Positions 1 to 50,738 of a stretch of 64,000 bases of DNA are shown here, in pieces. The notes beneath the pieces are model-generated. The model saw only the letters and a list, made by a program, of their open reading frames with translations. It was not told the DNA's origin and did no database searches. Source of the DNA: a virus. Position 1 is the first letter of the stretch. The number at the start of each line of letters is the position of its first letter. Position numbers and translations under genes: made by a program. The stretch lies in the IMG/VR virus record IMGVR_UViG_3300045988_121917, positions 1 to 64,000 of that record. The stretch is one strand, 5' to 3'.

Positions 1-74
1 AAAATATCTTAATTGATATTTTATAAAAAATATTATATAATATATATGTAATAATTAAAAAGGAATTGATACTA

Positions 75-416
75 ATGGGACGAAGAAATGGAAAAATGAT
101 AATCAATGATTTCTATTGTATGAATTGTGGTCATAAAAATATGAGTTTACCACGTCGTAATAGTCATCAACATGGTAGATTTCATAGAAAGAAAATGTAC
201 TGTGTATTTTGTAAACAAGAAGTAAATCATATCGAATGTAAATCATATGAAGATGTTCTTGAATTTAAAGAAAATTTTAAAAATGGGGCGTATAAAGATG
301 AAGCACAAGATTCTCTTTCTTATGTGCGGACCCGCAGGATCGGGCAAGACAACTTACGTCAAGAAGGAAATGGCACAGGCAATGACTTACAAGTGCGTAC
401 ATGTGTCAAGAGATGA
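75..416 (+). CDS. hypothetical zinc-ribbon protein (two CxxC pairs)
   Basis: ORF with AAAGGAA RBS before the ATG at 75. CMNCGH...CVFCK Cys pairs. The 3' part overlaps the next gene in another frame, so the true end is uncertain. Confidence 0.4.
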   Translation: MGRRNGKMIINDFYCMNCGHKNMSLPRRNSHQHGRFHRKKMYCVFCKQEVNHIECKSYEDVLEFKENFKNGAYKDEAQDSLSYVRTRRIGQDNLRQEGNGTGNDLQVRTCVKR

Positions 417-816
417 AGTAAGAGCTGAGTTCTTAAAAGAAGATGATAAAAACATCTTCAAGTATGAAGATGATGTCTTTGATGAATTCTGTAATAGAAT
501 TAAAAATGCTTTAAATGAAGCAACTGATGATATTGCAGTTTTTGCAGATGCAACTCATCTGAGTGAAAAAGCAAGAAATCGAGTTCTTGATAGACTTGAT
601 TTGGATGGAGTAGATATTATTCCAGTTGTATTTAATTTACCACTTGCTCAGATTCTTGCTCAGAATGAGAATCGAAAAGGAATGGGGCGTGCCTATGTTC
701 CAAGAGGAACAATCAGAAGAATGTTTTATACTTTTGATAAGCCAACTTACAATGAAAAATATACCTACAAACATATTTTGATTGTAGGAGATGCCGATAA
801 GGAGTATGTAGAATGA
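298..816 (+). CDS. P-loop kinase, polynucleotide-kinase-like (AAA_33-type)
   Basis: Walker A CGPAGSGKTT right after the Met. Size and layout resemble the T4 Pnk kinase domain. The start could instead be the ATG at 247. Confidence 0.6.
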   Translation: MKHKILFLMCGPAGSGKTTYVKKEMAQAMTYKCVHVSRDEVRAEFLKEDDKNIFKYEDDVFDEFCNRIKNALNEATDDIAVFADATHLSEKARNRVLDRLDLDGVDIIPVVFNLPLAQILAQNENRKGMGRAYVPRGTIRRMFYTFDKPTYNEKYTYKHILIVGDADKEYVE

Positions 817-1364
817 TTTATGTTACTTCAGACCTTCATTTTGGTCATTCGAAGCCATTCATTTATGAACCAAGAGGTTTTCCGAATATTAATGACCATG
901 ATGAAGAGATTATTAAAAAATGGAATGAGCTGGTGCGGCCGGAAGATGAAGTGTATATCTTAGGCGATTTAATGCTGAAAGATAATGAACATGGACTCGA
1001 ATGTTTAAAACGGCTGAATGGTAAAAAGTATTTTATCATTGGAAACCATGATACAAATACAAGAGTTAATCTTTATAAAGAAAATGGTCTTGAATGTCTT
1101 GGATATTCGACAGTTTTAAAATATAGAAAATATAATTTCTATATGAGTCATTATCCAACAATGACTGGTAATGTTGATGACTCAGGATTACATCATATGA
1201 CTTTAAACTTATTTGGTCATACTCATCAACAAGTTAATTTTTATGAAGATAATTTTTTCATGTATCATGTAGGAGTTGATTCTCATAATTGTTATCCAGT
1301 TTCACTTGATACAGTTATTGAAGATATAAAAAATAAATATGAGGAGTGTAAAGATATGCTATGA
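813..1364 (+). CDS. calcineurin-like metallophosphoesterase
   Basis: Motifs DLHFGH, GDLM and GNHD typical of metallophosphatases. AAGGAG RBS. ATGA overlap with the next gene. Confidence 0.7.
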   Translation: MIYVTSDLHFGHSKPFIYEPRGFPNINDHDEEIIKKWNELVRPEDEVYILGDLMLKDNEHGLECLKRLNGKKYFIIGNHDTNTRVNLYKENGLECLGYSTVLKYRKYNFYMSHYPTMTGNVDDSGLHHMTLNLFGHTHQQVNFYEDNFFMYHVGVDSHNCYPVSLDTVIEDIKNKYEECKDML

Positions 1365-1630
1365 GCCATTTAATTGGGTATAAGAGCTATGACAGCTCTA
1401 CAAAAGAGTCCCAAATTTTACGAGATTTAAACAGTTTTGCTTATGACCCGCAAGAATCAAGTGGGTATCATGGAAATTTAACTTTTCATAAAAATGCAGT
1501 TTATAAAAATAAAACTGAAGCTGTTCAAAAACTTAAAAGTTTGGTAACAACGTCATATGATGACCATGCTGTTCTTTATAAAGAAGACGGCAAAGAATAT
1601 TGGTTAGTAAAATATGAGTATCATTGTTGA
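1361..1630 (+). CDS. hypothetical protein
   Basis: 89-aa ORF translationally coupled to the upstream gene. Confidence 0.45.
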   Translation: MSHLIGYKSYDSSTKESQILRDLNSFAYDPQESSGYHGNLTFHKNAVYKNKTEAVQKLKSLVTTSYDDHAVLYKEDGKEYWLVKYEYHC

Positions 1631-1678
1631 ACCTTGAAAATTAAATAAATTATTATAAGAGAAAAAGGAGCTAAGTAC

Positions 1679-3211
1679 ATGAATATTTTAAGTTCAATTT
1701 TTCCATTTATCCCTGTAATTATTATTGCAGTGGCATTGATTGTGATCCTTGCGACAGGATATGTAAAGTCCTCACCTGATGTAGCTTATATCATCTCTGG
1801 TCCGCACAAGAAACCTCGAATCTTGATTGGTAAATCCGGTATTAAGATTCCTTTCTTTGAGAAACTCGATAAGTTGTCTCTTGGTGCGATTCAGATTGAT
1901 GTAAAAACTCGTACCGCTGTTCCAACAGCAGAATACATTAACGTAAAAGTTGATTCTACTGTTTCTGTACAGGTTGGAAGAACTGATGAAATGATTGCAC
2001 TTGCGGCTCAGAACTTCTTGAATGTTAAACGTGAAGTAATTGCAGAAAGAATCAATGACCTTTTGGAAGGTAATATTCGTGAAATCGTTGGTCAGATGAA
2101 ACTGACTGAGATGGTATCTGATAGAAAATCGTTTAGCGAAAAAGTCCAGCAGAATGTAGTTCCTGATCTTGCCAGATTCGGACTTGAGCTTGTTTCCTTT
2201 AATGTTCAGAACTTTTCTGATGAGGGTGGCGTTATTGATAACTTAGGTATTGATAACGTTGAGCAGATTAGAAAGAATGCAGCAATCGCTAAGTCTGATG
2301 CACAGAGAGAAATCGCTGTTGCTGAAGCAGCCAATGCAAAGAAATCTAATGATGCTAAGGTTCAGGCAGCTGAGGAAATTGCAGTTTGTAACAACGAGTT
2401 CGAGATGAAACAGGCAGACCTCAAGAAAACTGCTGATACTGCAAAGGCTCAGGCTAATGCGGCACAGGCAATTGAGGAAGAGAAACAGCGTCAGTTAAGA
2501 GACGTTGCTGCTACTGAAGCAGATATTGCTCGTCAGGAAAAGCAGATTGAGTTGAAAGAAAGAGAAGTTGCTATTAAAGAGCGTGCTCTGGAAGCTGAAG
2601 TTAAGAAAACTGCTGAAGCTGAGAAGTATGCAGCACAGCAGAGGGCAGATGCTAAACTGTATGAGACTCAGAAGAAATCTGAAGCTGAGTTGTTCGAGAG
2701 AACAAAACAGGCAGAAGCTGCGCTTGCAGAAGCACAGAGAGATGCAGATGCTAAGAAAGCTCTTGCAGAAGCCGTAAAAGCACAGGGTGAAGCTGATGCA
2801 GCTGCAGCAAAAGTAAAAGGTGAAGCAGAAGCTGCTGCTATTAGAGCTAAACTTGAAGCTGAGGCTGAAGGTCTTCAGAAGAAGGCAGAGGCTATGAAGC
2901 AGTATGGTGAAGCTGCTAAGCAGGACATGCAGTTACAGGCACTTAAAGTGTACTTCGAGCAGTTACCGGCAATTGCTGAAGCTGTTGGTAAAGGATACAC
3001 AAATGTTGATAAGATTATGATGTTCGGTGGAGACACCTCTAAGCTTGCTGGTGACATCATGACCAATGTAACTCAGGTATCTGAAGGACTGAGTGAATCT
3101 CTTGGAATCGACCTGAAGGCTCTTCTGGCTGGTTTCATGGGTGGTAACTTAGCCGCAAACAAAGGCGTAACTATTAACGCTGATACAGTTGTTGCTCCGA
3201 CTGAAGAGTAA
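1679..3211 (+). CDS. SPFH/band-7 flotillin-like protein
   Basis: N-terminal TM segment, SPFH-like core, and a long Ala/Glu/Lys-rich coiled coil typical of flotillin/YqiK. Strong RBS AAAAGGAG. Locally GC-richer codon usage. Confidence 0.7.
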   Translation: MNILSSIFPFIPVIIIAVALIVILATGYVKSSPDVAYIISGPHKKPRILIGKSGIKIPFFEKLDKLSLGAIQIDVKTRTAVPTAEYINVKVDSTVSVQVGRTDEMIALAAQNFLNVKREVIAERINDLLEGNIREIVGQMKLTEMVSDRKSFSEKVQQNVVPDLARFGLELVSFNVQNFSDEGGVIDNLGIDNVEQIRKNAAIAKSDAQREIAVAEAANAKKSNDAKVQAAEEIAVCNNEFEMKQADLKKTADTAKAQANAAQAIEEEKQRQLRDVAATEADIARQEKQIELKEREVAIKERALEAEVKKTAEAEKYAAQQRADAKLYETQKKSEAELFERTKQAEAALAEAQRDADAKKALAEAVKAQGEADAAAAKVKGEAEAAAIRAKLEAEAEGLQKKAEAMKQYGEAAKQDMQLQALKVYFEQLPAIAEAVGKGYTNVDKIMMFGGDTSKLAGDIMTNVTQVSEGLSESLGIDLKALLAGFMGGNLAANKGVTINADTVVAPTEE

Positions 3212-3216
3212 TTAAC

Positions 3217-3249
3217 TGAGAGGGGCTTTTAAGCCCCTCTTTTTTTTAT
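3217..3249 (+). terminator. rho-independent terminator
   Basis: GAGAGGGGCTTTTAAGCCCCTCT hairpin followed by a T8 run. Confidence 0.85.
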
Positions 3250-3263
3250 AGAAAGGATTAAGT

Positions 3264-3650
3264 ATGGAAATTATTTATTTTGAAATTAATGATTGGAGTC
3301 CAGGAAGAGATTATCCAGATTGTAAGCCATTCGACACTTGGTTCGATGTTGATAATTTAACTTTTAGAAATGAGCAATGGTTGATTGAAAATAAAATTAT
3401 TGTGGTTGAAACAATAATTGATATGTCATTAAATTATTGCGTTACAGCTCCAAAAGAATGGGTTGAGAAAAACTGTCCTTGTATTTTAAATTCTAAATTT
3501 ATTAGAGAGCCAAATGAAAATAATGAAGTATTCGGAAGATTTGGTTGCCCTTTCAAACCTTATACTGAAGAAAATTTAGGATACTGGTTTGCGGGCTGGG
3601 ATGAATTCGGGAAATGGAATCCTAAGCGGCTGGATGAAATAGAGTCTTAA
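3264..3650 (+). CDS. hypothetical protein
   Basis: 128-aa ORF with AAAGGA RBS. Confidence 0.5.
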   Translation: MEIIYFEINDWSPGRDYPDCKPFDTWFDVDNLTFRNEQWLIENKIIVVETIIDMSLNYCVTAPKEWVEKNCPCILNSKFIREPNENNEVFGRFGCPFKPYTEENLGYWFAGWDEFGKWNPKRLDEIES

Positions 3651-3667
3651 AAGACTCTATTTTTTTG
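3639..3667 (+). terminator. rho-independent terminator
   Basis: ATAGAGTCTTAAAAGACTCTAT hairpin overlapping the stop codon, then a T7 run. Confidence 0.8.
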
Positions 3668-3758
3668 TGCCAGAAAATTCGGGCTCGTAGGCGCCCTCAG
3701 CGGTCGTTGCCGCTTAAAAATCGCACCTACCAATTTTTTTTAGCAAAATGTCCCCTTT

Positions 3759-3787
3759 TTGATTTTCCCTTATTTTTGTGATATAAT
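3759..3787 (+). promoter_or_regulatory. sigma70-type promoter TTGATT-N17-TGaTATAAT
   Basis: -35 at 3759-3764, 17-nt spacer, extended -10 at 3779-3787, then RBS AAGGAGG of the gene at 3817. Confidence 0.65.
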
Positions 3788-3816
3788 GTTTTTATATAAT
3801 ATAAGGAGGACTTAAT

Positions 3817-4275
3817 ATGAGACAAGAACCTAAGTTCTACTGGGACGATACTACTAAAACTGCAACTTGCATTTTAGCAGATGAAAATAATATATTTACA
3901 GGTATTGCCAGCGTACATCCAGATGATATGGATATGGCTAATGAAAAAACTGGATATCAAATCGCTTTATGGAGAGCAGAAATTAAATATTATACTCATG
4001 TTCGTGACAATGAGTTAAAGCCAGCTCTTAAAGCATTAAAAAAAGTGATGGATGAAATGAAGTATAGTAAAAATTTTAATCCAAAATCTTACGAAAATAG
4101 GTCTTTGCAGAGAAACTTCTATCAAGTAGAATCTGACTTAGATACAGTTCGTGATTTGCTAGCTCATACTAAGCAAAAACTTAAACAGTATATTTCTGAA
4201 AAAGAAAAATTCTATCAAAAAATTAGAGCCAATAGAACAAAGAAGAACGATGTAGGACAAAAACCTTCAATTTAA
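3817..4275 (+). CDS. hypothetical protein
   Basis: 152-aa ORF with strong RBS AAGGAGG. Confidence 0.5.
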   Translation: MRQEPKFYWDDTTKTATCILADENNIFTGIASVHPDDMDMANEKTGYQIALWRAEIKYYTHVRDNELKPALKALKKVMDEMKYSKNFNPKSYENRSLQRNFYQVESDLDTVRDLLAHTKQKLKQYISEKEKFYQKIRANRTKKNDVGQKPSI

Positions 4276-4323
4276 TCTCTCTATTTTCAAATATATATAT
4301 AAGGAGTTAAAAAGGAGGAATGA

Positions 4324-4572
4324 ATGATTCAAAACTTAATATTTTTTATTTTAGGAATAATTTTTATTGAATTAATAATTCCTGTAATAGAGGCTCTAAC
4401 AATAGTAATTGTCACTGCTTTAGAGGTTGCTAAAGGCAAACTAAACATGATAATTTCTAAATATAATATACAAATCCAAAAAATGTCAGAAGAACTTGAG
4501 CCAGAAAATACACCCACTATTGGGTTTGTAGTACAAAATAATGAACCAGAGGAAGAAGAGGAAGACGAATGA
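4324..4572 (+). CDS. small membrane protein with acidic tail
   Basis: Hydrophobic N-terminus (LIFFILGIIFIELIIPVIEALTIVIV), C-terminal EEEEDE. RBS AAGGAGG. Confidence 0.4.
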   Translation: MIQNLIFFILGIIFIELIIPVIEALTIVIVTALEVAKGKLNMIISKYNIQIQKMSEELEPENTPTIGFVVQNNEPEEEEEDE

Positions 4573-5816
4573 AATTTTATGACACATGTGCATTATTAGA
4601 TAACTTTGAAACTATGCCAGAAGAGAAGTTCATCATATCTTCTATTACATTAGCGGAACTTGAGAAGATTAAAACATCAACTTCTAAAGATTCTGAAGTT
4701 AAATATATTGCAAGGAAAATCCTATCTTTTTTAAATGCTAATCCCGCAGAATATGAAGTTGTATTATATAAAACATTTTTTATTTATCCCTTTACTGAAA
4801 AAGGATTTGAAGTAAATAATGATATTAAAATTTTAGCAACTGCATATTCTTATTTCAATAATTTAAAAATAAGCGAAAGAGAAAATTTTTTCTTTGTAAC
4901 GAATGATTTAACTTTAAAAGTTACTGCTACAGCATTTTTACCAGATCAATGTATTGTATCTATGTATCCTCCAAAAGATGATTATAGTGGATATAAAGAA
5001 ATTATAATGGATGATGAAATGATGTCTGATTTTTATTCTAATCCCACTGAGAATATTTATGATTTAAAAGTAAATGAATATATTATTGTAAAAAATAAAG
5101 ATGGAAAACCTGTTGACTCTGCTGTATGGACAGGTTCTGAATATCGTCATACTCAATTTAGAAGTTTTAATTCTAAATGGTTTGGTGAAGTTAAACCACT
5201 TAAAGGAGATATTTATCAGACCCTTGTCGCAGATAGCTTTACAAATAATAAAATAACTCTGGTAAAAGGACCTGCGGGATCGGGTAAAACATACCTATCT
5301 CTTGGATACTTAATGAGCCAATTAGAGCGTGGCAAGATTGATAAAATTATTATTTTCTGTAATACAGTTGCTACAAAAAATTCTGCTAAATTAGGATATT
5401 TACCAGGTACTAAAGATGAAAAACTTTTAGATTCACAAATTGGAAATGTCCTTGCAAGTAAAATAGGAAGTCGAATTGAATTAGAAAGATTAATGGATGA
5501 AGAACAAATTGTTTTACTTCCATTCTCTGATATTAGAGGTTATGACACTACTGGAATGAATGCTGGGATATATATTTCAGAAGCTCAAAATCTTGATATT
5601 ACACTTATGAAACTTGCTTTACAAAGAATTGGTGAAGATAGCATATGTATTATAGATGGAGATGAAAAAGCGCAAGTTGATGATATTGCATTTGCCGGAA
5701 ATAATAATGGTATGAGACGAGTATCAAAAGTCTATCGAGGCGAAGATATATATGGTGAAATTGAATTAAAAATGATTCATCGTTCTAAAATTGCTAAAAT
5801 TGCAGAAAGATTATAA
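4569..5816 (+). CDS. phoH: PIN-domain / PhoH-like ATPase fusion (YlaK-like)
   Basis: N-terminal PIN-like region, then Walker A GPAGSGKT and the PhoH motif LGYLPGTKDEKL. Confidence 0.75.
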   Translation: MKFYDTCALLDNFETMPEEKFIISSITLAELEKIKTSTSKDSEVKYIARKILSFLNANPAEYEVVLYKTFFIYPFTEKGFEVNNDIKILATAYSYFNNLKISERENFFFVTNDLTLKVTATAFLPDQCIVSMYPPKDDYSGYKEIIMDDEMMSDFYSNPTENIYDLKVNEYIIVKNKDGKPVDSAVWTGSEYRHTQFRSFNSKWFGEVKPLKGDIYQTLVADSFTNNKITLVKGPAGSGKTYLSLGYLMSQLERGKIDKIIIFCNTVATKNSAKLGYLPGTKDEKLLDSQIGNVLASKIGSRIELERLMDEEQIVLLPFSDIRGYDTTGMNAGIYISEAQNLDITLMKLALQRIGEDSICIIDGDEKAQVDDIAFAGNNNGMRRVSKVYRGEDIYGEIELKMIHRSKIAKIAERL

Positions 5817-5820
5817 TATA

Positions 5821-5860
5821 AACCAGAAGAGATTAATATCTCTTCTGGTTTATTTATTTA
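5821..5860 (+). terminator. rho-independent terminator
   Basis: AACCAGAAGAGAT-TAAT-ATCTCTTCTGGTT hairpin followed by a T-rich tract. Confidence 0.8.
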
Positions 5861-5920
5861 TAATGGAAACATGTTAAAACTTTTGAATAAGATATTTTGA
5901 AAGAGGAGGTTTATACAAAT

Positions 5921-7624
5921 ATGGCTTCAATTGAAAAAAATATTTGGGATTATCTAATTAAAGAAATTAATAATCCATATGGTGTTGCCGGATTAATGGG
6001 TAATATCTATGCTGAGTCTGGTATGATTCCAAATAGAGTAGAAGTTTTATGCTTAAATAGATTAAAAGAACATGGTCAAGTATGGAATGATTCTACTTAT
6101 ACTGCGGCAGTTGATAATGGAAAAATCTCAAGAGAAACTTTTCTGCATCCACTCCCTAATAAGCAATATGGATATGGGCTTTGCCAATGGACAAGTCCAG
6201 GTCGTAAAGCAGGATTATATGATTTAGCAAAAATGAAACAAGCTTCTATTGGCAATGAATTAATTCAATTGCAATGGCTTATGACTGAATTAAAAAATAA
6301 TTATTCTACAGTTTTATCAACTTTAAAAAATGCAACAAGTGTAAGACAAGCTTCTGATATTGTATTAACTCGTTTTGAATGTCCTGCTAATACAGGTGAA
6401 ACTGTTAAAGCAACAAGAGCTAAATATGGTCAGAGGTATTATGATGCATATGCATCTAATAAAGGAGGAAACTCAATAGTGGCAAATTATAATAACTATA
6501 TTAATTCTACTGGTACTCATTATATTTCTAATTCAGGTTCAGATGAAAATGGTGGATATCATAGCGGAAGAGCTGGTGACCAGACTGGTAGAGAATGGTA
6601 CTTACGTTCTTGGTATAATAGACCATGGAATTGTGTATTAAGATATGAAAAAGACCCAAGAGTCGGTCAAAAAATGGCTGAATTAAGCTGTGCAGCAGCT
6701 CTTAATAATTTAGTTGGTTATGACCAATATGAAAGAGATACTTATTGGGCTCATTTAAAAGCATCTAACTATGATCCTGCTCAAATCACTATTGCATGTG
6801 AGGCAGACTGCTCCGCAGGAGTAATTGCTAATATTAGAGCAGTAGGATATTTACTTGGCATTCCAGCTTTACAAAATATTAATGCAAGTTATACTGGTAA
6901 TATGAGAGCCGGTTTTAAAGCTGCTGGATTTACTGTTTTAACAGCAGATAAATATCTTTCTGGATATGATTATTTACTTCCTGGAGATATTTTACTTAAT
7001 GATGCCCATCATACAGCAACAAATGTTACAAGAGGACGTTTAGCAGCTAATTCTAACTCACTACAACAAAGCCCAGCTCCAGAAAAAACTAATACTACTT
7101 ATGTTGGAAAAGGAATTGGTACTGCAACTGCAAAAACTGAGATGAATATTAGAAGTAATTCCAATACAAATAGCTCTTCTTATGGAACTATTTCTAAAGG
7201 AACTAAAGTAGAAGTATTAGAGATTTTATCTAATGGCTGGTATAAAATTGTATGGCCAGGTGCTTCATGCGGTTATGCTTATACTTCTAATTCTACTAAA
7301 ACTTATTATTCATATGTAGCTAAAAAGAAGGCTCCTACAATTACTAAACCAAAACCATCCAGTAGTAAAAGTATAACTGCAAAAGAAGGCGCAACTGACT
7401 TTAATAAATCTCTTGCAGGCACATATTATACAACAGCTGATTTAAATATCCGCCATGGAGCAGGTACATCTAAGGCTCTTATGGTTACAATTCCAAAAGG
7501 AACAAAAGTAGCTAATTATGGATATTACTCAGTTAGCAACGGTTGTAAATGGCTATATGTCCAATTCACATATAAGAACGTAACTTATACAGGATTTGCT
7601 TCAAGCACATATTTACGTAAATAA
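5921..7624 (+). CDS. endolysin / peptidoglycan hydrolase (phage tail-lysozyme-type catalytic domain plus SH3b-like wall-binding repeats)
   Basis: N-terminal region (AGLMGNIYAESG, GLCQWTSPGRK) resembles phage lysozyme-like domains. C-terminal repeated SH3b-like segments (GTKV...NGWYK, GTKVANYGYYSVSNGCKWLYV). RBS AAAGAGGAGG. The ORF-track TTG at 5897 is probably not the start. Confidence 0.6.
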   Translation: MASIEKNIWDYLIKEINNPYGVAGLMGNIYAESGMIPNRVEVLCLNRLKEHGQVWNDSTYTAAVDNGKISRETFLHPLPNKQYGYGLCQWTSPGRKAGLYDLAKMKQASIGNELIQLQWLMTELKNNYSTVLSTLKNATSVRQASDIVLTRFECPANTGETVKATRAKYGQRYYDAYASNKGGNSIVANYNNYINSTGTHYISNSGSDENGGYHSGRAGDQTGREWYLRSWYNRPWNCVLRYEKDPRVGQKMAELSCAAALNNLVGYDQYERDTYWAHLKASNYDPAQITIACEADCSAGVIANIRAVGYLLGIPALQNINASYTGNMRAGFKAAGFTVLTADKYLSGYDYLLPGDILLNDAHHTATNVTRGRLAANSNSLQQSPAPEKTNTTYVGKGIGTATAKTEMNIRSNSNTNSSSYGTISKGTKVEVLEILSNGWYKIVWPGASCGYAYTSNSTKTYYSYVAKKKAPTITKPKPSSSKSITAKEGATDFNKSLAGTYYTTADLNIRHGAGTSKALMVTIPKGTKVANYGYYSVSNGCKWLYVQFTYKNVTYTGFASSTYLRK

Positions 7625-7626
7625 TT

Positions 7627-8028
7627 ATGACTAAAGAAGAACGTGATATAACTATTAAAGAACGTCGCTGGCAAAGAGAAAAAGAAGTTCTTGAAAGAAA
7701 ATATAAATTAAAACAAGAAAAAAGAGAATTTAAAAAACAATTCCTTCCTAAAATATCTACTTCAAAACTCCTTATTCTTTTCTTGTTTATAAATTGCACA
7801 ATTATAGAACTTTTCACAGGCTTTGTAACTTTAAAGAGTCTTGATTTAACAACTCTTACCATGGCGAATCCAGACTTTACTCCATTAGTAGCATTAATAG
7901 GTGCAGTCGTGAGTGAGGTCGTAGGATATGCGGTCTATGCATTGAAGTCCGCAAAAGAGAATACTGTAGGTGGTATTACATACGAAGCAGCAATGCGTCA
8001 AATTGACGAAGATAAAGCTAAAGGATAA
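7627..8028 (+). CDS. putative holin-like membrane protein
   Basis: Highly charged N-terminus followed by two predicted TM helices, located immediately after the endolysin. Confidence 0.35.
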   Translation: MTKEERDITIKERRWQREKEVLERKYKLKQEKREFKKQFLPKISTSKLLILFLFINCTIIELFTGFVTLKSLDLTTLTMANPDFTPLVALIGAVVSEVVGYAVYALKSAKENTVGGITYEAAMRQIDEDKAKG

Positions 8029-8039
8029 TTGATTTTTAA

Positions 8040-8081
8040 CCCTAAAAGAGAAGATTTTTCTCTTTTAGGGTATTTTTTTTT
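8040..8081 (+). terminator. rho-independent terminator
   Basis: CCCTAAAAGAGAAGATTTTTCTCTTTTAGGG hairpin plus a T10 run. Confidence 0.85.
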
Positions 8082-8104
8082 GACCGTAACTAAAATTTTA
8101 AGAA

Positions 8105-8133
8105 TTGATTTTATTATTTTTTTATGCTATAAT
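8105..8133 (+). promoter_or_regulatory. sigma70-type promoter TTGATT-N17-TGcTATAAT
   Basis: -35 at 8105-8110, -10 at 8128-8133, upstream of the gyrB-like gene. Confidence 0.6.
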
Positions 8134-8183
8134 ATATATATGATAAGAAAAAATGATGATTTTAAAGTTGAAAGGAGATTTAT

Positions 8184-10082
8184 ATGTCTGAAAACTATGG
8201 TGTAAAAGACATAAAAACTTTGGAAGGTATTGAAGCCATCAGGCTTAGACCTGGTATGTATATAGGCTCAATCGGACCAGATGGAGTTAGACATATTACT
8301 CTTGAAATTATTTCTAACGTAATTGATGAGTATTTAAACGGATATTGTACAAAGTGTAATATTGAAGTAACAGAAAATGACATGGTAAAAGTTTCTGATG
8401 ATGGACGTGGTGTTCCTTTTGGAAAAGCCGCAGATGGTTCAGAAACTCTTGAAAATATTTTTACTAAACTTCATACAGGAGCTAAATTTGATAGCTCTGG
8501 TAAAACTGGATATAATACATCTGGTGGTATGAATGGTGTTGGTGCAAAAGCAACAAATGCATTGTCTGATAAATTTATTGTCACTTCCAAAAGAGATGGT
8601 AAAATTGCAACAATGACATTTGAAAAGGGTGAAAGAAAAGATTTTAAAGTTGAAAAGTATGCTGGAAAAGATACTGGAACAACTATTACTTTTCATCCTG
8701 ATATTGAGATTTTTAAAGAGGGAATCTCACTTGATTATGAAGAATTAAAAAGACAGATTCAGGAATTAGCATATCTTTCTCCTGGATTAACTTTTACATT
8801 AAAATATAAAGATAAGGCTGAAGATGTAATTGTTTCTCAGAATGGTATTCTGGATTATATTCAAGATTTGAATAAAAAGAAAAATACTATTACATCTGTT
8901 TTTTATGCTGAAGCTTTCGAAGATAGAATTGGTGTAAAATTAGCAATGCTGTATAACGATAGTTATACTGATACTTATAAATTATATACAAACTCAATTC
9001 CAAATACAGCTGGGACTCATCTTACTGGATTTAGAACTGCATTAACTTCTGCAATTAATAATTATGCAAGAGAGAATAAACTTCTTAAAGAGAAGGATTC
9101 TAATATCGTAGGTGATGAATTAAAAGAAGGTCTTGTATTAGTTCTTTCTTTTGTGATGCCAGACCCAGTCTTTTCAGGTCAGACAAAAGAGAAACTTGAT
9201 TCAAGTGAAGGACGTACAATGGTCCAGAAGCTGGTATCAAAAGAAATCGCAATTTGGCTTGACAGCCATCCTAATGACGCAAAAGCAATTATCAATAAAG
9301 CTTTATTAGCACGTGCCGCAAGAGAAAAAGCTAAAAAAGCTAAAGAAACAGTTCGTAAAGCTGATGTGAAGAAAAGGGCAGTAATGCCTGGTACATTAGC
9401 AGATGCAAGTTCTCGAAATAGAGCTTCTTGTGAAGTATTTATTGTAGAGGGAAAATCTGCGGCCGGTTCAACAAAAGAAGCAAGGGATAGAGCTACCCAG
9501 GCTGTATTCCCCGTAAGAGGAAAGATTCTTAACGTATTGAAGGCAGACCTCGCGAAGGCATTAAAGAACGCAGAAATTGATGGTATGATTACTGCTTTTG
9601 GACTTGAAATTAAAGATGGAAAAGTAATTGTAAATAAAGATAAATTGCGTTACGGTAAAATTGTTATTACAGCCGATGCGGACGTTGATGGTAGCCACAT
9701 TAGAGCGTTATTTTTAACCTTTATTTGGAAATTTGCTCCGCAATTAATTGAAGATGGATATATTTATGCGGCAGTTCCTCCACTTTATAAAGTAACTCAG
9801 GGAACTAAGATTACTTATTTAAAAGATGATGCTGCTCTTGAGGAGTTCAGAAAGACCGCTAAAAAATCTTTTGAGCTGGGTCGTATGAAGGGTCTTGGCG
9901 AGATGGACCCGTCCGAAATGGCTGAAACAGTTATGAATCCAGAAACTAGAACTCTTAAACAGATATGTATGGAAGACGCAGAAGAAGCTGCTAAAACTTT
10001 CATGAGATTGATGGGTGAGTCAGTTGTTTATAGAAAGAAATTTATCGAAGAGAATGCGTGGAGAGCAAATATTGACGTATAA
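8184..10082 (+). CDS. type IIA topoisomerase ATPase/Toprim subunit (GyrB/ParE-like)
   Basis: GHKL ATPase N-terminus, Toprim motifs EGKSAAGS and ADADVDGSHI, 632 aa. RBS AAAGGAG. Confidence 0.9.
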   Translation: MSENYGVKDIKTLEGIEAIRLRPGMYIGSIGPDGVRHITLEIISNVIDEYLNGYCTKCNIEVTENDMVKVSDDGRGVPFGKAADGSETLENIFTKLHTGAKFDSSGKTGYNTSGGMNGVGAKATNALSDKFIVTSKRDGKIATMTFEKGERKDFKVEKYAGKDTGTTITFHPDIEIFKEGISLDYEELKRQIQELAYLSPGLTFTLKYKDKAEDVIVSQNGILDYIQDLNKKKNTITSVFYAEAFEDRIGVKLAMLYNDSYTDTYKLYTNSIPNTAGTHLTGFRTALTSAINNYARENKLLKEKDSNIVGDELKEGLVLVLSFVMPDPVFSGQTKEKLDSSEGRTMVQKLVSKEIAIWLDSHPNDAKAIINKALLARAAREKAKKAKETVRKADVKKRAVMPGTLADASSRNRASCEVFIVEGKSAAGSTKEARDRATQAVFPVRGKILNVLKADLAKALKNAEIDGMITAFGLEIKDGKVIVNKDKLRYGKIVITADADVDGSHIRALFLTFIWKFAPQLIEDGYIYAAVPPLYKVTQGTKITYLKDDAALEEFRKTAKKSFELGRMKGLGEMDPSEMAETVMNPETRTLKQICMEDAEEAAKTFMRLMGESVVYRKKFIEENAWRANIDV

Positions 10083-10178
10083 TGATGCAATGTATCTGGC
10101 CGTTGGAGTTGAAGACGGCTGGATACATGTAACTCCAAAAGTGTGGAAAGAATATTTAAAAGCTAAAGAGGTTATTCA

Positions 10179-10538
10179 ATGGAAACAAAAATATTTGAAT
10201 TTGTACCAGAAGAGTCAGAACACTTTGAATCCCAATTTTTAAAATGGTATGATGCGGGCAAGCCTAAAAATAATTTTAATGAGGCTTATAATTATAGTAC
10301 AATAACTCAATTTCTTATATGGGAGTATGGATTATCAGATGAGTCATATGATAAACCTCGTAGATGGAATCAAATTGTAGAAGGGGTTGTTTGTATTAAT
10401 GGACGCTATTTTTCTGTTTGCTATGATAGAGGTTTAACAGAAATGCAAGAAGATGATTATGACTTTGATGATAATATTACTGAAGTTGAAAAATGCACAG
10501 TTTTAAAAGAGGTAACAGAATGGAAGAAAAAAAGATAA
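10179..10538 (+). CDS. hypothetical protein
   Basis: 119-aa ORF with AAAGAGG RBS 7 nt upstream. Confidence 0.4.
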   Translation: METKIFEFVPEESEHFESQFLKWYDAGKPKNNFNEAYNYSTITQFLIWEYGLSDESYDKPRRWNQIVEGVVCINGRYFSVCYDRGLTEMQEDDYDFDDNITEVEKCTVLKEVTEWKKKR

Positions 10539-10759
10539 TTGAATTAGCTGGAGATTTTTCTCAAAAACCAGATATGGCCGCAATTACCAAAATAACTCCT
10601 ATAAAAGATGGGGATAAAGTGATTTTACATTTTGATATAGAGAAATATAATTTAGATATAGATACTGTTGCTCAACAATTTAAGCTATGGCAGCAATGTT
10701 TTCCACATAATGATGTAATTGGAGATTTGTGTAATATAGGCATTGAAGTAAAGGAGTAA
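10520..10759 (+). CDS. hypothetical protein
   Basis: Internal ATG with AAAGAGG RBS. The track ORF 10493 likely starts here. Confidence 0.35.
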   Translation: MEEKKIIELAGDFSQKPDMAAITKITPIKDGDKVILHFDIEKYNLDIDTVAQQFKLWQQCFPHNDVIGDLCNIGIEVKE

Positions 10760-10761
10760 AT

Positions 10762-11208
10762 ATGATATTTTATACAGATGGTTCGGCGAGTCCAAATCCA
10801 GGCCCAGGTGGTTTTGGAGTTGTTCAAGTCGATACAGAAGGTAATATTTTAAGTACATATTCCAGTAGACAGGATAATACGACTAATAATGAACAGGAAA
10901 TGAAAGCTATTCTTTATGCGGCCTGTCAAGGAGTATTAGCTAAAGAAGATGTATTAATTTACTCTGATTCTGCATATGCAATTAATACTTTTTCAAACTG
11001 GATATATAATTGGGAAAGAAATGGATGGGTTAAAGGAGATGGAAAGGTTCCTGAAAATTTAGAAATTGTGAAGGCTTTTTTTGATATATCTAAAATAATT
11101 GAGGTTACTTTTGTAAAAGTAAAAGGACACTCTAAAAATCCATTTAATGAGCTGGCAGATAATCTGGCGACAGGCAAGGTTAAACCTGGTAACTATTTGA
11201 CAATTTAA
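10762..11208 (+). CDS. rnhA: ribonuclease HI
   Basis: YTDGSASPNPGPGGFGVV RNase H signature with conserved acidic residues. RBS AAGGAG. Confidence 0.85.
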   Translation: MIFYTDGSASPNPGPGGFGVVQVDTEGNILSTYSSRQDNTTNNEQEMKAILYAACQGVLAKEDVLIYSDSAYAINTFSNWIYNWERNGWVKGDGKVPENLEIVKAFFDISKIIEVTFVKVKGHSKNPFNELADNLATGKVKPGNYLTI

Positions 11209-11225
11209 TTTTTTTATGGTAATAT
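11197..11225 (+). promoter_or_regulatory. sigma70-type promoter TTGACA-N17-TGgTAATAT
   Basis: -35 TTGACA at 11197-11202, -10 at 11220-11225. Confidence 0.5.
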
Positions 11226-11232
11226 ATTATAT

Positions 11233-11511
11233 ATGGATAAGAATAAAGAACAGTTAAAAAAACAATTACTACATTTTGTTAAATCAGTTGAAGAACTTAT
11301 GACAAAAGAAGAATATGATAAATATATGAAAGAATATCATAAACAAGATCCTCTTTTACAAACAGGTTCTGGTTATTTATATGTTCCATCAGAAGATGTT
11401 GTTATTAGTGCTGATTCAATTTATAATTTTATAGAAAGAGTTATAGATGAAAGTTTGATGGATGTAAAAATGCAATATTATAAAGAATTATTCGATAAGG
11501 GAGAGTTTTAA
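11233..11511 (+). CDS. hypothetical protein
   Basis: 92-aa ORF. Its stop overlaps the start of the downstream topoisomerase subunit. Confidence 0.45.
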   Translation: MDKNKEQLKKQLLHFVKSVEELMTKEEYDKYMKEYHKQDPLLQTGSGYLYVPSEDVVISADSIYNFIERVIDESLMDVKMQYYKELFDKGEF

Positions 11512-13889
11512 TGAGTGAGAATATTATTCAAGTAAATATTAAAGATGAAATTGAACAGAGTTTACTTGATTATGGAATGAGTATCATTTCAGATCGAGCT
11601 TTACCTTCAGCAGAGGATGGATTAAAACCTGTTAATAGACGTATCTTATATGATATGTTTGATAAAGGTTTTATGAACAATAAGAAATTTGTAAAGTGTG
11701 CTCAGCCAGTCGGAGATACAATGGGTAGATTTCATCCGCATGGTGATAGTTCTATCTATGGTGCATTAGTATGGATGTCACAGGAATGGAATATGAGATA
11801 TCCACTCATTTCTTGGCATGGTAATAACGGAAGCCGAGATGGTGATGAACCGGCTGCATATAGATATACAGAATGTAAGCTTTCTAAACTTGGAGAAGAA
11901 ATGCTTGCAGATATTAAAAAGAATACAGTAGATTGGATGAATGCTTATACAGATGAGGAGCAGGAGCCAATTTATTTACCTGGCCGCATTCCAAACCTTA
12001 TTGTAAATGGTACTTCTGGAATTGCATGGGCGATGGCTTGTTCATTTGCACCGCACAATTTATCAGAAGTTATGGATGCAGCTATTTATCTTTTGGAAAA
12101 TCCAGAATGTGATATTAGAGAACTCTTAAACTATATTAAAGGTCCAGATTTTCCAACAGGTGGATTACTTATTAATAAAGATGAACTTGAGACAGCTTAT
12201 CTTACAGGAAAAGGTCGTGCAAGATTAAGAGGTGAATATACAATCGAATCTTCCAAAAACGGAGATAGTATTGTTTTTACTTCAATTCCTTATAAGGTAT
12301 CTAAAGAGACATTAACAATCGAGATTGATAAACTCTGTGAAGAAGGAGAACTTAATGGCGTAACAGCTATTAGAGATGAATCCAACAGAGATGGTGTACG
12401 TTTTGTAATTGAACTTGGTAAAGGAATATCTGCGGCACCGATTATCGCAAAATTATTCAAATCTACACGCCTTGAAGATACATATTCATTTAATCAGGTT
12501 GCGCTGGTTGATAAGAAACCAAGACTGCTGAATATTAAACAGCTTTTGGAAAATTATATTGAGCATCAGAAAGATGTTCTTTTAAGAAAGACTAAATTCG
12601 ATATTGAAAAAGTACAAGCAAGAATTCATATTCTTGAAGGATTATTAATTGCACTTGAAGATATTGATAATATTATTGCTTTAATTAAGAAATCTGCTAG
12701 TGCTGCTGCCGCAAAAGAAGCTTTAATGGATAAGTATAATCTTAGTGAAGCACAGGCAAAAGCAATTCTTGATATGAAATTAAGTAAATTGGCTCGTTTG
12801 GAATCAGTTGAAATTCAGACTGAAAAAGATAATTTACTTAAAAAAGAAGCTGAATTAAATCAGATTCTTTTAAATCCAGTTCCAGAGATGAAAAAAAACT
12901 TCACAGAGATTAAAACCTCATATGGAGATGCTCGTAGAACCACAATCACACAGGTAAATGTCACAAAAGAAGAAAAAGAGATTGAATATGTAGAACCTGA
13001 AAAATGTGTTGTTGTAATGACAGAAGATGGTTTGATTAAACGTATTCCTTCTACTAGCTTTAGAACTCAGAGAAGAAACGGAAAAGGCGTTAAAACACAA
13101 GGTGATGTTGTTAAAACTACCATCCGCACAAATACTATTGATTCTCTTATGGTATTTACAACAAAAGGAAAAATGTATCGTATCCTTGTAAATGATATTC
13201 CAGTAGGTACAAATGTATCTAAAGGTCAGTCAATTAAGTCTTTAATTGCGATGGATACTGATGAAGAACCTAATTTAATTTATTCTATTTATAGAGATAC
13301 TGATGCGAAATATTTATTATTTGTAACAAAGAACGGAATTACAAAGAAAACCTCATTAGAGGAATATACAAATACAAAGAAAAAGACTGGAATTATTGCT
13401 ATTAATCTTAAAGAAGATGATACCTTAGTATCTGTAAATCTTGTTAAAGATGAAGATTTAATTCTTTTAACCTCTAATGGTATGGGAATTAAGATTAATT
13501 CTGGAGAGATTTCAGCTTCTGGTAGAGCAACAGCAGGCGTTAAAGGAATCACTTTAAAGAAAGATGATTTTGTAGTTGCAGCATTACCAGTTCGTAATAA
13601 GACAGATTACATTGCAATCTTTTCATCTAAAGGTCTTGGAAAGAAGATTGAAATGGATGAATTAGTTCTTCAGAAACGTGCGGGAAAAGGTTTAATTATT
13701 TATAAGCCAACAGATGAAACAGGAACAGTTATTTCTGGTGCTTTAGTTGCAGACGAGGATAATATTCTTGTTGTTGGCAAATTAAGTTCAATTTGTATTT
13801 CAGCAAAAGACATTCCTCTTACAAGTAGAATTGCAACAGGTAATCAGTTAATTAAGAATGGTGAAATTACTTCTGTGACAAAAATTTAA
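11511..13889 (+). CDS. type IIA topoisomerase DNA breakage-reunion subunit (GyrA/ParC-like)
   Basis: Active-site region AAYRYTECKL (catalytic Tyr), HPHGD motif, C-terminal beta-pinwheel-like repeats, 792 aa. Confidence 0.9.
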   Translation: MSENIIQVNIKDEIEQSLLDYGMSIISDRALPSAEDGLKPVNRRILYDMFDKGFMNNKKFVKCAQPVGDTMGRFHPHGDSSIYGALVWMSQEWNMRYPLISWHGNNGSRDGDEPAAYRYTECKLSKLGEEMLADIKKNTVDWMNAYTDEEQEPIYLPGRIPNLIVNGTSGIAWAMACSFAPHNLSEVMDAAIYLLENPECDIRELLNYIKGPDFPTGGLLINKDELETAYLTGKGRARLRGEYTIESSKNGDSIVFTSIPYKVSKETLTIEIDKLCEEGELNGVTAIRDESNRDGVRFVIELGKGISAAPIIAKLFKSTRLEDTYSFNQVALVDKKPRLLNIKQLLENYIEHQKDVLLRKTKFDIEKVQARIHILEGLLIALEDIDNIIALIKKSASAAAAKEALMDKYNLSEAQAKAILDMKLSKLARLESVEIQTEKDNLLKKEAELNQILLNPVPEMKKNFTEIKTSYGDARRTTITQVNVTKEEKEIEYVEPEKCVVVMTEDGLIKRIPSTSFRTQRRNGKGVKTQGDVVKTTIRTNTIDSLMVFTTKGKMYRILVNDIPVGTNVSKGQSIKSLIAMDTDEEPNLIYSIYRDTDAKYLLFVTKNGITKKTSLEEYTNTKKKTGIIAINLKEDDTLVSVNLVKDEDLILLTSNGMGIKINSGEISASGRATAGVKGITLKKDDFVVAALPVRNKTDYIAIFSSKGLGKKIEMDELVLQKRAGKGLIIYKPTDETGTVISGALVADEDNILVVGKLSSICISAKDIPLTSRIATGNQLIKNGEITSVTKI

Positions 13890-13918
13890 GTGGGATTTAT
13901 TTCCCACTTATCTTTTCC
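13888..13918 (+). terminator. rho-independent terminator
   Basis: AAGTGGGATTTATTTCCCACTT hairpin followed by a T-rich tract. Confidence 0.7.
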
Positions 13919-13931
13919 AAAAGGAGAATAA

Positions 13932-15910
<1,979 letters not shown>

Positions 15911-15943
15911 TAAATTGTAATAAAGATAAGGATAGAAAAAAAT

Positions 15944-16138
15944 ATGAATAAGAAAGAAATCAAGAATTTAGCTAAACAAATCGCAAAGGCTGAATTAATT
16001 ATTCAGAATTCCACTGATCAAAAGGAAAGAAAATATGCGATGGATACAATAATTGCTTTATCCAATAAGCTCTCCTCATTAGAGGAAATAGAACGTGTCG
16101 ATGAGATGGTTCAAAAAATTTTAAAAAATAATTCTTGA
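15944..16138 (+). CDS. hypothetical small protein
   Basis: 64-aa ORF downstream of the promoter. Confidence 0.35.
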   Translation: MNKKEIKNLAKQIAKAELIIQNSTDQKERKYAMDTIIALSNKLSSLEEIERVDEMVQKILKNNS

Positions 16139-16163
16139 CTTAAAAATATTTTTTTGATATAAT
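16135..16163 (+). promoter_or_regulatory. sigma70-type promoter TTGACT-N17-TGaTATAAT
   Basis: Perfect -35, spacing and -10 upstream of the gene at 16237. Confidence 0.7.
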
Positions 16164-16236
16164 AATTACATAAGCTAAGAGAGCTTAGAAAATTACACAA
16201 ACAATAAAATTATTTAATTAAAGGAGATTTGTTATT

Positions 16237-16512
16237 ATGGCAAAAATGAAAGAAAATTCACGTAAAGTATTTGAGTATTTAAAGACTATCGGAGATGCAA
16301 AGGTTACAGCAGCAGATGTAGCAGAGGCACTCGGAATTGAGAAGAAACGTGTAGATGGAATCTTTACTTCCGCTATTCAGAGAAAAGGTCTTGGAGTTCG
16401 TACTCCTGCAGAAGTTGAGCTTGAGGACGGAAGTCATAAGGCAGTTAAGTTCTTGTCTCTTACACCAGCTGGCATGAGCTTCGACCTAGACGCTGAAGAT
16501 GAAGCTGAGTAA
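16237..16512 (+). CDS. small acidic HTH-like protein
   Basis: 91 aa. TAADVAEALGIEKKRVDG resembles an HTH, with an acidic C-terminal tail DLDAEDEAE. Strong RBS AAAGGAG. Own promoter and terminator. Higher GC than neighbours. Confidence 0.5.
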   Translation: MAKMKENSRKVFEYLKTIGDAKVTAADVAEALGIEKKRVDGIFTSAIQRKGLGVRTPAEVELEDGSHKAVKFLSLTPAGMSFDLDAEDEAE

Positions 16513-16538
16513 TTAAATTATTTTTGTAAGATAAATTA

Positions 16539-16571
16539 AAAGAGATAAGGTAATACTTATCTCTTTTTTTA
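16539..16571 (+). terminator. rho-independent terminator
   Basis: AAAGAGATAAGGTAATACTTATCTCTTTTTTT hairpin with T-run. Confidence 0.85.
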
Positions 16572-16578
16572 ACAAAAT

Positions 16579-17571
16579 ATGATTACTGTAATTATAGCAA
16601 TTTTTTGTCTTATATTGGGGGCTGGGTTAGTATATCTGTTTATGCAACCAAAAGTCAAAGTTACTCAAGAGGAAGATAAAGAAATTCTTGAAAAGAATAA
16701 AGCCGTTCAATTTGAGTTACAAGCAATGGAGCAAAGAACGGATTACTTAAAAGAGCAATATGAACAAAAATTGCAAGAATATAAACAATTAAAACAAGAT
16801 GTTGATAAGGAATATAAGGCTTCAGAAGAAAATGCGAAAAAATATTATCAACAAATGCTTGATTTTTATAAACAAAAATTTCACACTGATATAGAAGAAA
16901 TTCATGCTATTTTTATGAATACCAAACATAGTTTAGAAGATAGCTATGAAGAATTGGCTAAAGATTTAGTACAAGATTATTTGGATAAAGAGCAAGAAAG
17001 CATCCAAAAGATAAAAAAATTAAATGAAAAAATTCAATTTGAAGAATCTCAGCTAGAGGACTTGCGGCATAAGGTAGAGGCCGCAGTTGCGTATGATAAA
17101 CGCAATGAAGAAAATAAGAATAAAACTGATTTTTATAAATTAAATTTAGCTCAAGATGATTTAGATGAAATTTATGAATTAAGGAAAATTATTTCTCATT
17201 TTAGAAATCCTGAACCTGTAAATAAGGTTATATGGAAAACATATTATGAGAAACCTTATACTGATTTAGTTGGTAGAGTAATTGGTTCTGGTATTCATTG
17301 CGGTATTTATAAAATCACAAATTTACAAAATAATATGTGTTATGTCGGACAAAGTACGAATATTGCTGAACGTTGGAAACAGCATATTAAGCGTGGATTG
17401 GGCGCAGATACTCCGACCCGCAATAAACTTTATCCTATTATGCAGGCTGTTGGAGTTGAAAATTTTTCATTTGAAATCATTGAAGAATGTACAAAATCTC
17501 AATTAAATGATAGAGAAGATTATTGGCAAGATTTTTTTAAAGCAAAAGAATTTGGTTATAGTATAAAATAA
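16579..17571 (+). CDS. membrane-anchored coiled-coil protein with C-terminal GIY-YIG nuclease domain
   Basis: N-terminal TM helix, about 200 aa of K/E/Q-rich coiled coil, then GIYKITNL...YVGQS...RWKQH...ENFSFEIIEEC. This is paralogous to the GIY-YIG domain of the 19588 gene. Confidence 0.6.
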   Translation: MITVIIAIFCLILGAGLVYLFMQPKVKVTQEEDKEILEKNKAVQFELQAMEQRTDYLKEQYEQKLQEYKQLKQDVDKEYKASEENAKKYYQQMLDFYKQKFHTDIEEIHAIFMNTKHSLEDSYEELAKDLVQDYLDKEQESIQKIKKLNEKIQFEESQLEDLRHKVEAAVAYDKRNEENKNKTDFYKLNLAQDDLDEIYELRKIISHFRNPEPVNKVIWKTYYEKPYTDLVGRVIGSGIHCGIYKITNLQNNMCYVGQSTNIAERWKQHIKRGLGADTPTRNKLYPIMQAVGVENFSFEIIEECTKSQLNDREDYWQDFFKAKEFGYSIK

Positions 17572-19521: not shown

Positions 19522-19587
19522 ATTTTTATGGGCTATGTTGATTAAAAAATAATCAACAAAACTCACATAATTGTGAGGAGGTATAAA

Positions 19588-42656: not shown

Positions 42657-42686
42657 TATATTTTAAAAGAGTAAAAGGAGCTATTA

Positions 42687-46142: not shown

Positions 46143-46171
46143 AGAAGTAAAGAGTAAAAGGAGTATAGTAA

Positions 46172-48602: not shown

Positions 48603-48646
48603 AAAAGAGGGGATAGAATTTAATTCTATCCCCTATTATTTTTTAT
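48601..48646. terminator. bidirectional rho-independent terminator
   Basis: A-run, then AGGGGATAGAATTTAATTCTATCCCCT hairpin, then T-run. Lies between convergent + and - gene blocks. Confidence 0.85.
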
Positions 48647-48934: not shown

Positions 48935-48939
48935 TAATT

Positions 48940-49449: not shown

Positions 49450-49450
49450 A

Positions 49451-50712: not shown

Positions 50713-50738
50713 ATTAATGTCCTCCTTTTTAAAATATA

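Follow-up and report, generated by a model that had tools for sequence, protein, structure and literature searches.

A full-length flotillin gene of a large phage as a probable long-resident cassette, replaced in its slot by a prohibitin-like protein in related phages

What bacterial flotillins and other SPFH scaffolds do in cells is still debated. We analyzed 64,000 nucleotides of viral DNA (positions 1 to 64,000 of the IMG/VR virus record IMGVR_UViG_3300045988_121917; this whole stretch is referred to below as the window), which carry a complete gene for a flotillin-like protein near their start. The protein resembles FloT (YuaG) of Bacillus subtilis in its length of about 500 residues and in its arrangement of a membrane anchor, an SPFH domain, an EA-rich coiled coil and a C-terminal flotillin region. 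Unlike FloT, it is phage-borne, scores below the equivalog cutoff of the FloT family model and lacks the adjoining NfeD-type gene present in yuaF-floT (such a partner was sought beside the flotillin gene and none was found). The Clostridia flotillin loci examined have no obvious NfeD-like neighbor either, as judged from ORF (open reading frame) lists only, so this partner is not a defining feature of the nearest cellular relatives. These relatives, the flotillins of gut Clostridia and Streptococcus sanguinis, are about 50-56% identical to the window protein overall (up to 64% in the SPFH domain and up to 60% in the tail) and also stand alone. They differ from the phage gene in having no phage synteny, a composition matching that of their neighbors and no upstream TTGAAAA motif, and they represent the probable donor pool, still swapping modules with the phage genes. 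The best solved relative is the human flotillin-1/flotillin-2 complex (9bq2, 9l3g), from which the working model, an oligomeric cage attached to the membrane, is taken. However, the human complex is a hetero-oligomer anchored through acylation and a hairpin, whereas the phage has one gene and its product one hydrophobic N-terminal segment. Prohibitin, HflK/C and QmcA share the superfamily fold and the ring-forming principle, but they are about 300 residues long with a short coiled coil and show no BLASTP similarity to the window protein outside a low-complexity helix.

In phages, SPFH ORFs of unknown function have been noted in the T4-like phages 44RR, Aeh1 and RB43 (PMC1524935), and others occur in the Pseudomonas phages KPP10 and PAK_P3 (PMC8540360) and in the schitovirus GIB1 (PMC13239085). 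The 'flotillin family protein' of Vibrio phage KIT04 is 25% identical to the window protein, over the SPFH part only. These phage SPFH proteins are short or distant and belong to phages of Gram-negative bacteria, whereas the window encodes a full-length flotillin. Our literature search returned only short SPFH ORFs, and none of the papers found describes a phage clade that shares a full-length flotillin; a phage inserting itself into the host floA gene (PMC13245101) is not relevant to the window gene. Some related proteins are already labeled 'flotillin' by the JGI pipelines. The locus presents a known family in an unusual carrier, and what is new is the replacement at the level of the slot, the mosaicism and the maintained codon bias. 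The initial annotation of the window, made from the sequence without database searches, had called the gene unusual cargo for a phage. This agrees with the GenBank phage collection, where 10 of 50,697 records gave any tblastn match and two matches covered at least 80% of the protein, both in uncultured human-gut contigs. Four short records named 'Enterococcus phage' or 'Listeria phage' (OR846627.1, PQ520226.1, OR847422.1 and OR849508.1; 1.5-20 kb) with flotillin matches of 33-36% resemble pieces of host DNA more than phage genomes.

The same annotation had proposed a complete flotillin homologue with a transmembrane anchor, an SPFH core and a long A/E/K-rich coiled coil, and each of these parts was recovered (Table 1). 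The 510-residue product matches the Pfam families Band_7 (E 1.6e-18, 67.8 bits against a cutoff of 23.6) and, by a narrow margin, Flot (E 1.3e-6, 28.9 bits against a cutoff of 27). Its best PDB matches are to human flotillin-1 (9bq2_B and 9l3g_A, E 1e-45, residues 32-326 and 366-479), where the second stretch corresponds to flotillin-1 residues 305-416 independently of the Flot match, followed by flotillin-2 (E 7e-35) and by QmcA from the next SPFH subfamily (E 1.9e-5), with no PDB match to prohibitin or HflK at E ≤0.01. The NCBIfam FloT model NF058507 aligns end to end (residues 13-487 onto positions 6-476 of 477), but with 231 bits against an equivalog cutoff of 700. Because of this score, the protein is classified as FloT-like in architecture and not as a FloT orthologue. 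The protein has a single hydrophobic segment (Kyte-Doolittle 19-residue peak of 3.13 at residues 7-25), and the lysine K30 after it suggests that the bulk of the protein is cytoplasmic. Residues 201-430 are 65% A/E/K/Q with 15 'EA' dipeptides, and residues 201-410 contain no proline. An AlphaFold2 model built on a shallow alignment (21 sequences, all at least 77% identical) has low confidence, with a mean pLDDT (predicted local distance difference test) of 53.8 and values below 50 in the SPFH part; its helices span residues 191-246 and 251-406. Taken together, these matches make the assignment as a flotillin nearly certain.

No SPFH or flotillin family of PHROGs matched the window protein. The sole PHROGs match was to a tape-measure family (E 1.8e-4), which could point to a coiled-coil virion protein with a chance SPFH similarity. 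This match lies mostly over the low-complexity helix and was dismissed as spurious, while the Band_7, Flot, FloT and flotillin-1 matches are far better and cover the full length. In addition, the gene lies in a replication-side block and not among tail genes, which leaves the virion reading with a negligible probability. The best matches are hence flotillins and not coiled-coil phage proteins devoid of an SPFH core.

The best explanation of the whole, to which we give a probability of roughly 55%, is that the gene represents a long-kept, functional and probably highly expressed flotillin cassette, whose product would serve as a membrane scaffold in infection. A peptide-pattern scan of IMG/VR returned 47 flotillin loci. 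In about 39 of these, as well as in a contig from an 'Eubacterium' metagenome-assembled genome (locus L048), the flotillin gene occupies the same slot in the order AAA_33 kinase, metallophosphoesterase, flotillin, PIN-PhoH, endolysin and topoisomerase. This synteny spans a broad clade of large gut phages that infect Firmicutes, including the phage of the window. The gene is present in all species-level relatives. The syntenic flotillins are from 99% down to about 50% identical, often more than the neighboring proteins (for example, 77% for flotillin against 27-57% for its neighbors in L012). The ratio of nonsynonymous to synonymous substitution rates (dN/dS) is 0.04-0.10 for the closest relatives and for L010/L011 and reaches 0.15 against more distant lineages, and dS between lineages is about 1.2-2.2, which corresponds to saturated synonymous sites. 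These coding-sequence comparisons show strong purifying selection on the flotillin gene. With the shared slot and the codon bias described below, they make a long-resident, selected cassette much more probable than a recent capture.

Two relatives are notable for the surroundings or the length of the gene. In L206 (GCA_963641765.1, CAVIER010000002.1, positions 1-17491), the flotillin is 81% identical and is accompanied by NAD-salvage genes (NAPRTase, NAD synthase and NADAR), a formate/nitrite-transporter-like membrane protein directly 3' of flotillin and a formate-tetrahydrofolate ligase. The flotillin ORF of L158 (5619-6089) encodes only 156 residues, with tblastn similarity running past its end, and may be a frameshifted or decaying copy.

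The initial annotation had also noted a GC-richer codon composition and ascribed it to recent acquisition from a host or to high expression. The compositional difference itself is clear. The gene has a GC content of 0.424 compared to 0.315 ± 0.028 for the 54 other ORFs, the highest of all, and a GC content at third codon positions (GC3) of 0.324 compared to 0.192 ± 0.039. Amino-acid content (expected GC 0.369, with alanine at 16.7% against 5.9%) accounts for about half of this GC excess, and synonymous choice for the remainder (observed minus expected GC3 of +0.143 against +0.009 ± 0.036). All 30 glutamine codons are CAG (33% in the background), and AAG (45% against 20%), AAC (45% against 12%), ATC (29% against 11%) and GGT (67% against 39%) are favored, whereas ATA (0% against 16%) and TTA (17% against 55%) are avoided. 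GCC and GCG are not enriched, so the bias concerns specific codons and not GC-rich codons in general. In cross-validation, the codon bias of one half of the gene predicted that of the other half with z-scores of about 4.1-4.2 against all other ORFs.

The same codon preferences are found in all syntenic phage lineages, with a GC offset of about +0.10 and a GC3 rank of 1-3 in phages of 32% and 40% GC alike, and the favored CAG and AAG codons correspond to Lachnospiraceae-type usage. The possibility that this offset is intrinsic to flotillin genes was rejected, since bacterial flotillins at 59 loci differ from their neighbors by only +0.028 in GC and +0.043 in GC3. The offset is therefore a phage-specific feature. 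Because a historical donor signature should decay over saturated synonymous change, selection on codon use is the simpler explanation, and the bias looks like selection for expression. Thus, of the two causes offered by the initial annotation, high expression is the better supported by the codon data, and recent acquisition did not hold up.

A recently captured host gene, with the GC-rich composition as a donor signature and no phage-specific role as passenger cargo, would account for a composition unlike that of every other ORF. It would also fit the exchange of segments between phage and bacterial flotillins in this clade and the finding that bacterial flotillins are close to the composition of their own genomes, so that a host-like composition would look identical. 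However, at each level of relatedness the closest genes belong to phages and occupy this slot, with up to 99% identity, whereas the closest bacterial flotillins are about 50-61% identical to the window protein. The bias is shared by phage lineages with saturated dS and with a dN/dS of 0.04-0.10 in close relatives, GCC and GCG are not raised, and a non-homologous SPFH substitute (see below) is biased alike. Accordingly, we consider a recent capture very improbable.

A search anchored on the PIN-PhoH gene produced 78 further loci, about 62 of which had enough upstream sequence to judge. Flotillin was present in 25 of the judged loci and a short SPFH protein in nine, with neither found within ±8 kb in about 28. 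The short protein (260-323 residues; Band_7 E 4.3e-27) has prohibitin-2 as its best PDB match (2e-12) and shares no BLASTP similarity with flotillin except for the low-complexity helix. It lies in the flotillin slot in six of the nine loci (L140 at 5147-6118, L150, L152, L176, L204 and L181) and just 5' of the kinase in the other three (L173, L183 and L202). A comparison of L141 (flotillin) with L152 (short SPFH) revealed flanks that are 90-98% identical, with the cassette alone swapped between limits about 60 nucleotides 5' of the start codon and about 50 nucleotides 3' of the stop codon. The codon bias of the short gene is like that of flotillin (GC3 rank 1-4; CAG fraction 0.56-1.0, and at least 0.9 in five of seven loci), and its terminator is usually at the same place. 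The alignments identify this exchange as a non-orthologous replacement within one superfamily, from which we infer that selection maintains an abundant SPFH scaffold and not flotillin as such. In L152 and L176, the first transmembrane segment of the short protein is split off into a separate small ORF.

FtsH-type proteases are partners of several SPFH families, including HflK/C with FtsH, prohibitin with the m-AAA protease, and FloA and FloT of B. subtilis with FtsH. An FtsH-directed role of phage SPFH proteins has been raised before (PMC8540360), and the phage scaffold could act like HflK/C by caging or modulating the host FtsH, thereby protecting membrane or regulatory proteins of the phage or setting the lysis-lysogeny decision. 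The interchange of a flotillin and a prohibitin/HflK-like protein fits such a superfamily-wide function. However, by the positive-inside rule flotillin and the short protein probably have opposite orientations in the membrane, with the SPFH domain of the short one directed outward, and no FtsH-related gene was found among the flotillin neighbors. An FtsH-directed regulator is therefore quite unlikely in our estimate.

The origin and exchange of the flotillin gene were analyzed using a bacterial scan with one genome per species and neighbor-joining trees, which supplied the comparison with bacterial flotillins suggested by the initial annotation. The bacterial matches are mainly from Clostridia (Lachnospiraceae, Oscillospiraceae, Ruminococcus, Blautia and Dorea), together with S. 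sanguinis, a few Erysipelotrichales and occasional members of other phyla, and the bacterial genes lie in housekeeping contexts. Monophyly of all syntenic phage flotillins as whole genes was rejected (0% bootstrap). The SPFH domains of most syntenic phage flotillins form a 'phage-type' clade with 100% bootstrap, and the gene as a whole is mosaic. In one group (L017, L018, L020, L029 and L041; flotillin at about 10001-11540), the SPFH domain falls together with that of Acetatifactor (100% bootstrap, 77% identity), whereas the tail clusters with the group of the window (96% bootstrap) and has 85% nucleotide identity against 65-70% for the flanks. L044 carries a third head type, with 34% identity to the window protein in the SPFH domain and 63% in the tail. 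These trees and identities show that flotillin exchanges its SPFH head and its coiled-coil tail as modules with phage and bacterial flotillins and that some phage lineages have replaced the SPFH head with a bacterial-type head; the original donors were probably Clostridia. The phage-type clade also includes the flotillin at L049:8007-9536 (ONBX01000009.1, uncultured Clostridiales RUG166, 60% GC), whose SPFH domain shares 80-88% identity with the phage type. This scaffold has the TTGAAAA motif and no window-phage gene within ±8 kb, and this flotillin could stem from a phage-to-bacterium transfer or from another phage.

With respect to function, the cassette is self-contained, since the coding sequence has its own upstream motif and strong ribosome-binding site on one side and a terminator on the other. 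By analogy with flotillin, HflK/C, QmcA and prohibitin, the N-terminus would anchor the protein and the long helices would drive its oligomerization into cages, shaped as rings or domes, on the inner face of the host membrane. Such cages would most likely serve to stabilize or compartmentalize the membrane of the infected cell, with membrane integrity, fluidity or energization, membrane-protein turnover, and the timing of holin/endolysin lysis as options. An endolysin and a small membrane protein are encoded 2.7 kb downstream of flotillin in the same block. A membrane-scaffold role in the infection cycle, drawn from the described families, is a tentative assignment, and the suggestion of the initial annotation that the protein remodels host membrane microdomains is a reasonable extension of what the family is known for. 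That a clade of large gut Firmicutes phages needs its own abundant SPFH scaffold, supplied from one slot where flotillin and prohibitin-like proteins are interchangeable and modules are shuffled with hosts, is a broader reading that we regard as rather doubtful. If it is correct, phages would have a dedicated infection function in which membrane cages or microdomains of the infected cell are assembled or taken over, for instance to control the timing of lysis, the turnover of membrane proteins, or replication or assembly at the membrane, and the locus would offer a clean genetic handle on the actual role of bacterial flotillins. A gene that is kept by a virus, tuned in its codons and replaced only by another SPFH protein points to a concrete, selectable scaffold function. 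It also illustrates that atypical GC content in a phage gene need not imply recent horizontal transfer.

Several observations weigh against this interpretation of the cassette. Since an SPFH gene is lacking within ±8 kb in about 45% of the backbone relatives, the SPFH function may be dispensable or encoded elsewhere. The probable opposite topology of flotillin and its substitute argues against one specific shared protein partner. The cage architecture is drawn from sequence homology, as the AlphaFold2 model is poor. The 'host-optimal codons' are inferred from Clostridia loci and not from the actual host of the phage, and the recurrent recombination with host flotillins seen in this clade could also keep the composition host-like. 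The trees were built with 100 bootstraps and a bacterial sample limited to the 80 best matches. Finally, the absence of a terminator between the upstream genes (247-1630) and flotillin means that the gene may be co-transcribed as the last of a longer transcript and not be monocistronic.

The signals surrounding the gene were compared across lineages. The motif at 1631-1648 travels with the phage flotillin cassette and has one copy in the whole 64-kb window. Its core TTGA[AC]AA occurs at -60 to -20 in 26 of 41 syntenic phage flotillins but in only three of 87 other flotillin loci, and the form (G/A)(T/A)AC(C/A)TTGAAAA is also found 5' of flotillin in L010, L017, L023, L026, L033, L039, L042, L044, L048 and L049. 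A general phage promoter class was rejected because of the single occurrence in 64 kb, and a -35 box in all lineages because the spacing to the Shine-Dalgarno sequence varies from 5 to 27 nucleotides; the motif could be an operator or an element of the 5' untranslated region. The overlapping promoter candidate is weak alone, as promoter-like sites in this AT-rich window are no commoner than in shuffled sequence. As the initial annotation had indicated, the gene has a strong terminator of its own. The hairpin (10-bp stem with six G-C pairs, -17.4 kcal/mol) starts seven nucleotides past the stop codon, and its stem is the most G-C-rich of four intergenic plus-strand terminator-like sites in the first 20 kb. 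Of 16 divergent relatives, 14 have a hairpin with a T run at this position, and the stem sequences are unrelated.

Table 1. Features of the flotillin gene and its flanking signals (window coordinates).
Feature	Position	Strand	Basis and remarks
Flotillin gene	1679..3211	+	ATG start, 510 aa; stop codon counted in the coordinates
N-terminal hydrophobic membrane anchor	1688..1756 (residues ~4-26)	+	Lone hydropathy peak; model helix 4-25
SPFH / Band_7 domain	1832..2305 (residues 52-209)	+	Pfam PF01145; 100%-bootstrap 'phage-type' clade
Long A/E/K/Q-rich helical (coiled-coil) region	2249..2968 (residues ~191-430)	+	Composition, helix prediction, alignment to flotillin-1 helices
Flot C-terminal region	2789..3025 (residues 371-449)	+	Pfam PF15975; second flotillin-1 aligned stretch 366-479
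Candidate sigma-70-like promoter TTGAAC-18 nt-TATTAT	1627..1656	+	Consensus scan, 9/12 matches; in the 48-nt gap 5' of the gene
Conserved upstream motif ACCTTGAAAATTAAATAA	1631..1648	+	Travels with the phage flotillin cassette
Shine-Dalgarno sequence AAAGGAG	1664..1670	+	8 nt 5' of ATG; kept in relatives
Intrinsic terminator GAGAGGGGCT-TTTA-AGCCCCTCTT followed by a T run	3218..3249	+	Hairpin 3218-3241

The carrier of this cassette was characterized from its gene content. The window encodes topoisomerase II subunits, an NAD-dependent ligase, a PolIII-alpha-type polymerase, DnaB, a primase, RecJ, a Dda-like helicase, NrdD with its activase, a dUTPase, RuvC, a guanylate kinase, a holin, an SH3-domain endolysin and GIY-YIG homing endonucleases. 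Its polymerase is nearest (about 39-41%) to those of 140-kb Enterococcus phages and to YorL of SPbeta, which identifies the window as part of a large phage related to these groups and makes a Gram-positive host almost certain. A megablast search of window positions 1-12000 against GenBank phages gave no match, and IMG/VR holds near-identical contigs of 188-196 kb. No tRNA genes and no Rfam families were found in the window, which thus offers no phage tRNA to match the codon bias. The flotillin slot lies between the metallophosphoesterase and PIN-PhoH genes in the early or replication-side block, and the two ORFs flanking flotillin (1361-1630 and 3264-3650) have no Pfam or PHROGs match and are not membrane proteins.

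These features bear on the possibility that flotillin is a moron or lysogenic-conversion gene, expressed from a prophage and hardening the lysogen membrane against bile or antimicrobial peptides, or excluding superinfecting phages. Such a gene would be expected as a cassette with its own upstream element and terminator that is swapped as a unit and patchily distributed among relatives, as seen here, and SPbeta, one of the closest sources of related DNA polymerases beside the Enterococcus phages, belongs to a temperate group. Host membrane-repair proteins such as DynA are also known to alter phage lysis (PMC8844932). On the other hand, the 64-kb window showed neither an integrase nor a repressor, and the gene lies inside, and co-oriented with, a replication and nucleotide-metabolism block. 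Furthermore, PADLOC defense models gave no match to flotillin at E ≤0.01, and only weak P-loop noise to its neighbors. We therefore judge a moron to be unlikely and retain the scaffold cassette used in infection as the preferred interpretation.

Other parts of the window also have distinctive features. The AAA_33 kinase gene (247-816), located two genes 5' of flotillin, has the second-highest flotillin-like codon score and a raised GC3 (0.302), and it is preceded by a small CxxC...CxxC protein (ORF 66-416) conserved in relatives, for example, at L160:5949-6203. Downstream of flotillin, the region 5897-8028 encodes an endolysin (Phage_lysozyme2, ELLD and SH3) directly followed by a 133-residue membrane protein, with a terminator at 8039-8071. 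These genes may form a second lysis module, distant from the holin that PHROGs annotates at 51596-52006. The replication module contains two GIY-YIG-type homing endonuclease genes (16579-17571 and 19573-20247). The region 41415-47948 contains tandem radical-SAM proteins (42687-44111 and 44108-45502) and four flanking ORFs without a family match, one of them 413 residues long with an unusually high GC content at second codon positions, and may represent a modification or peptide-maturation cluster. A strand switch coincides with a GC-skew reversal at about 48.6 kb. The minus-strand block that follows (48600-64000) includes the holin gene, an ORF of 2171 residues with tail-fiber-like segments (52018-58533) and a BspA-type leucine-rich-repeat protein (61801-63876), which gave the sole Pfam match among the large minus-strand ORFs.

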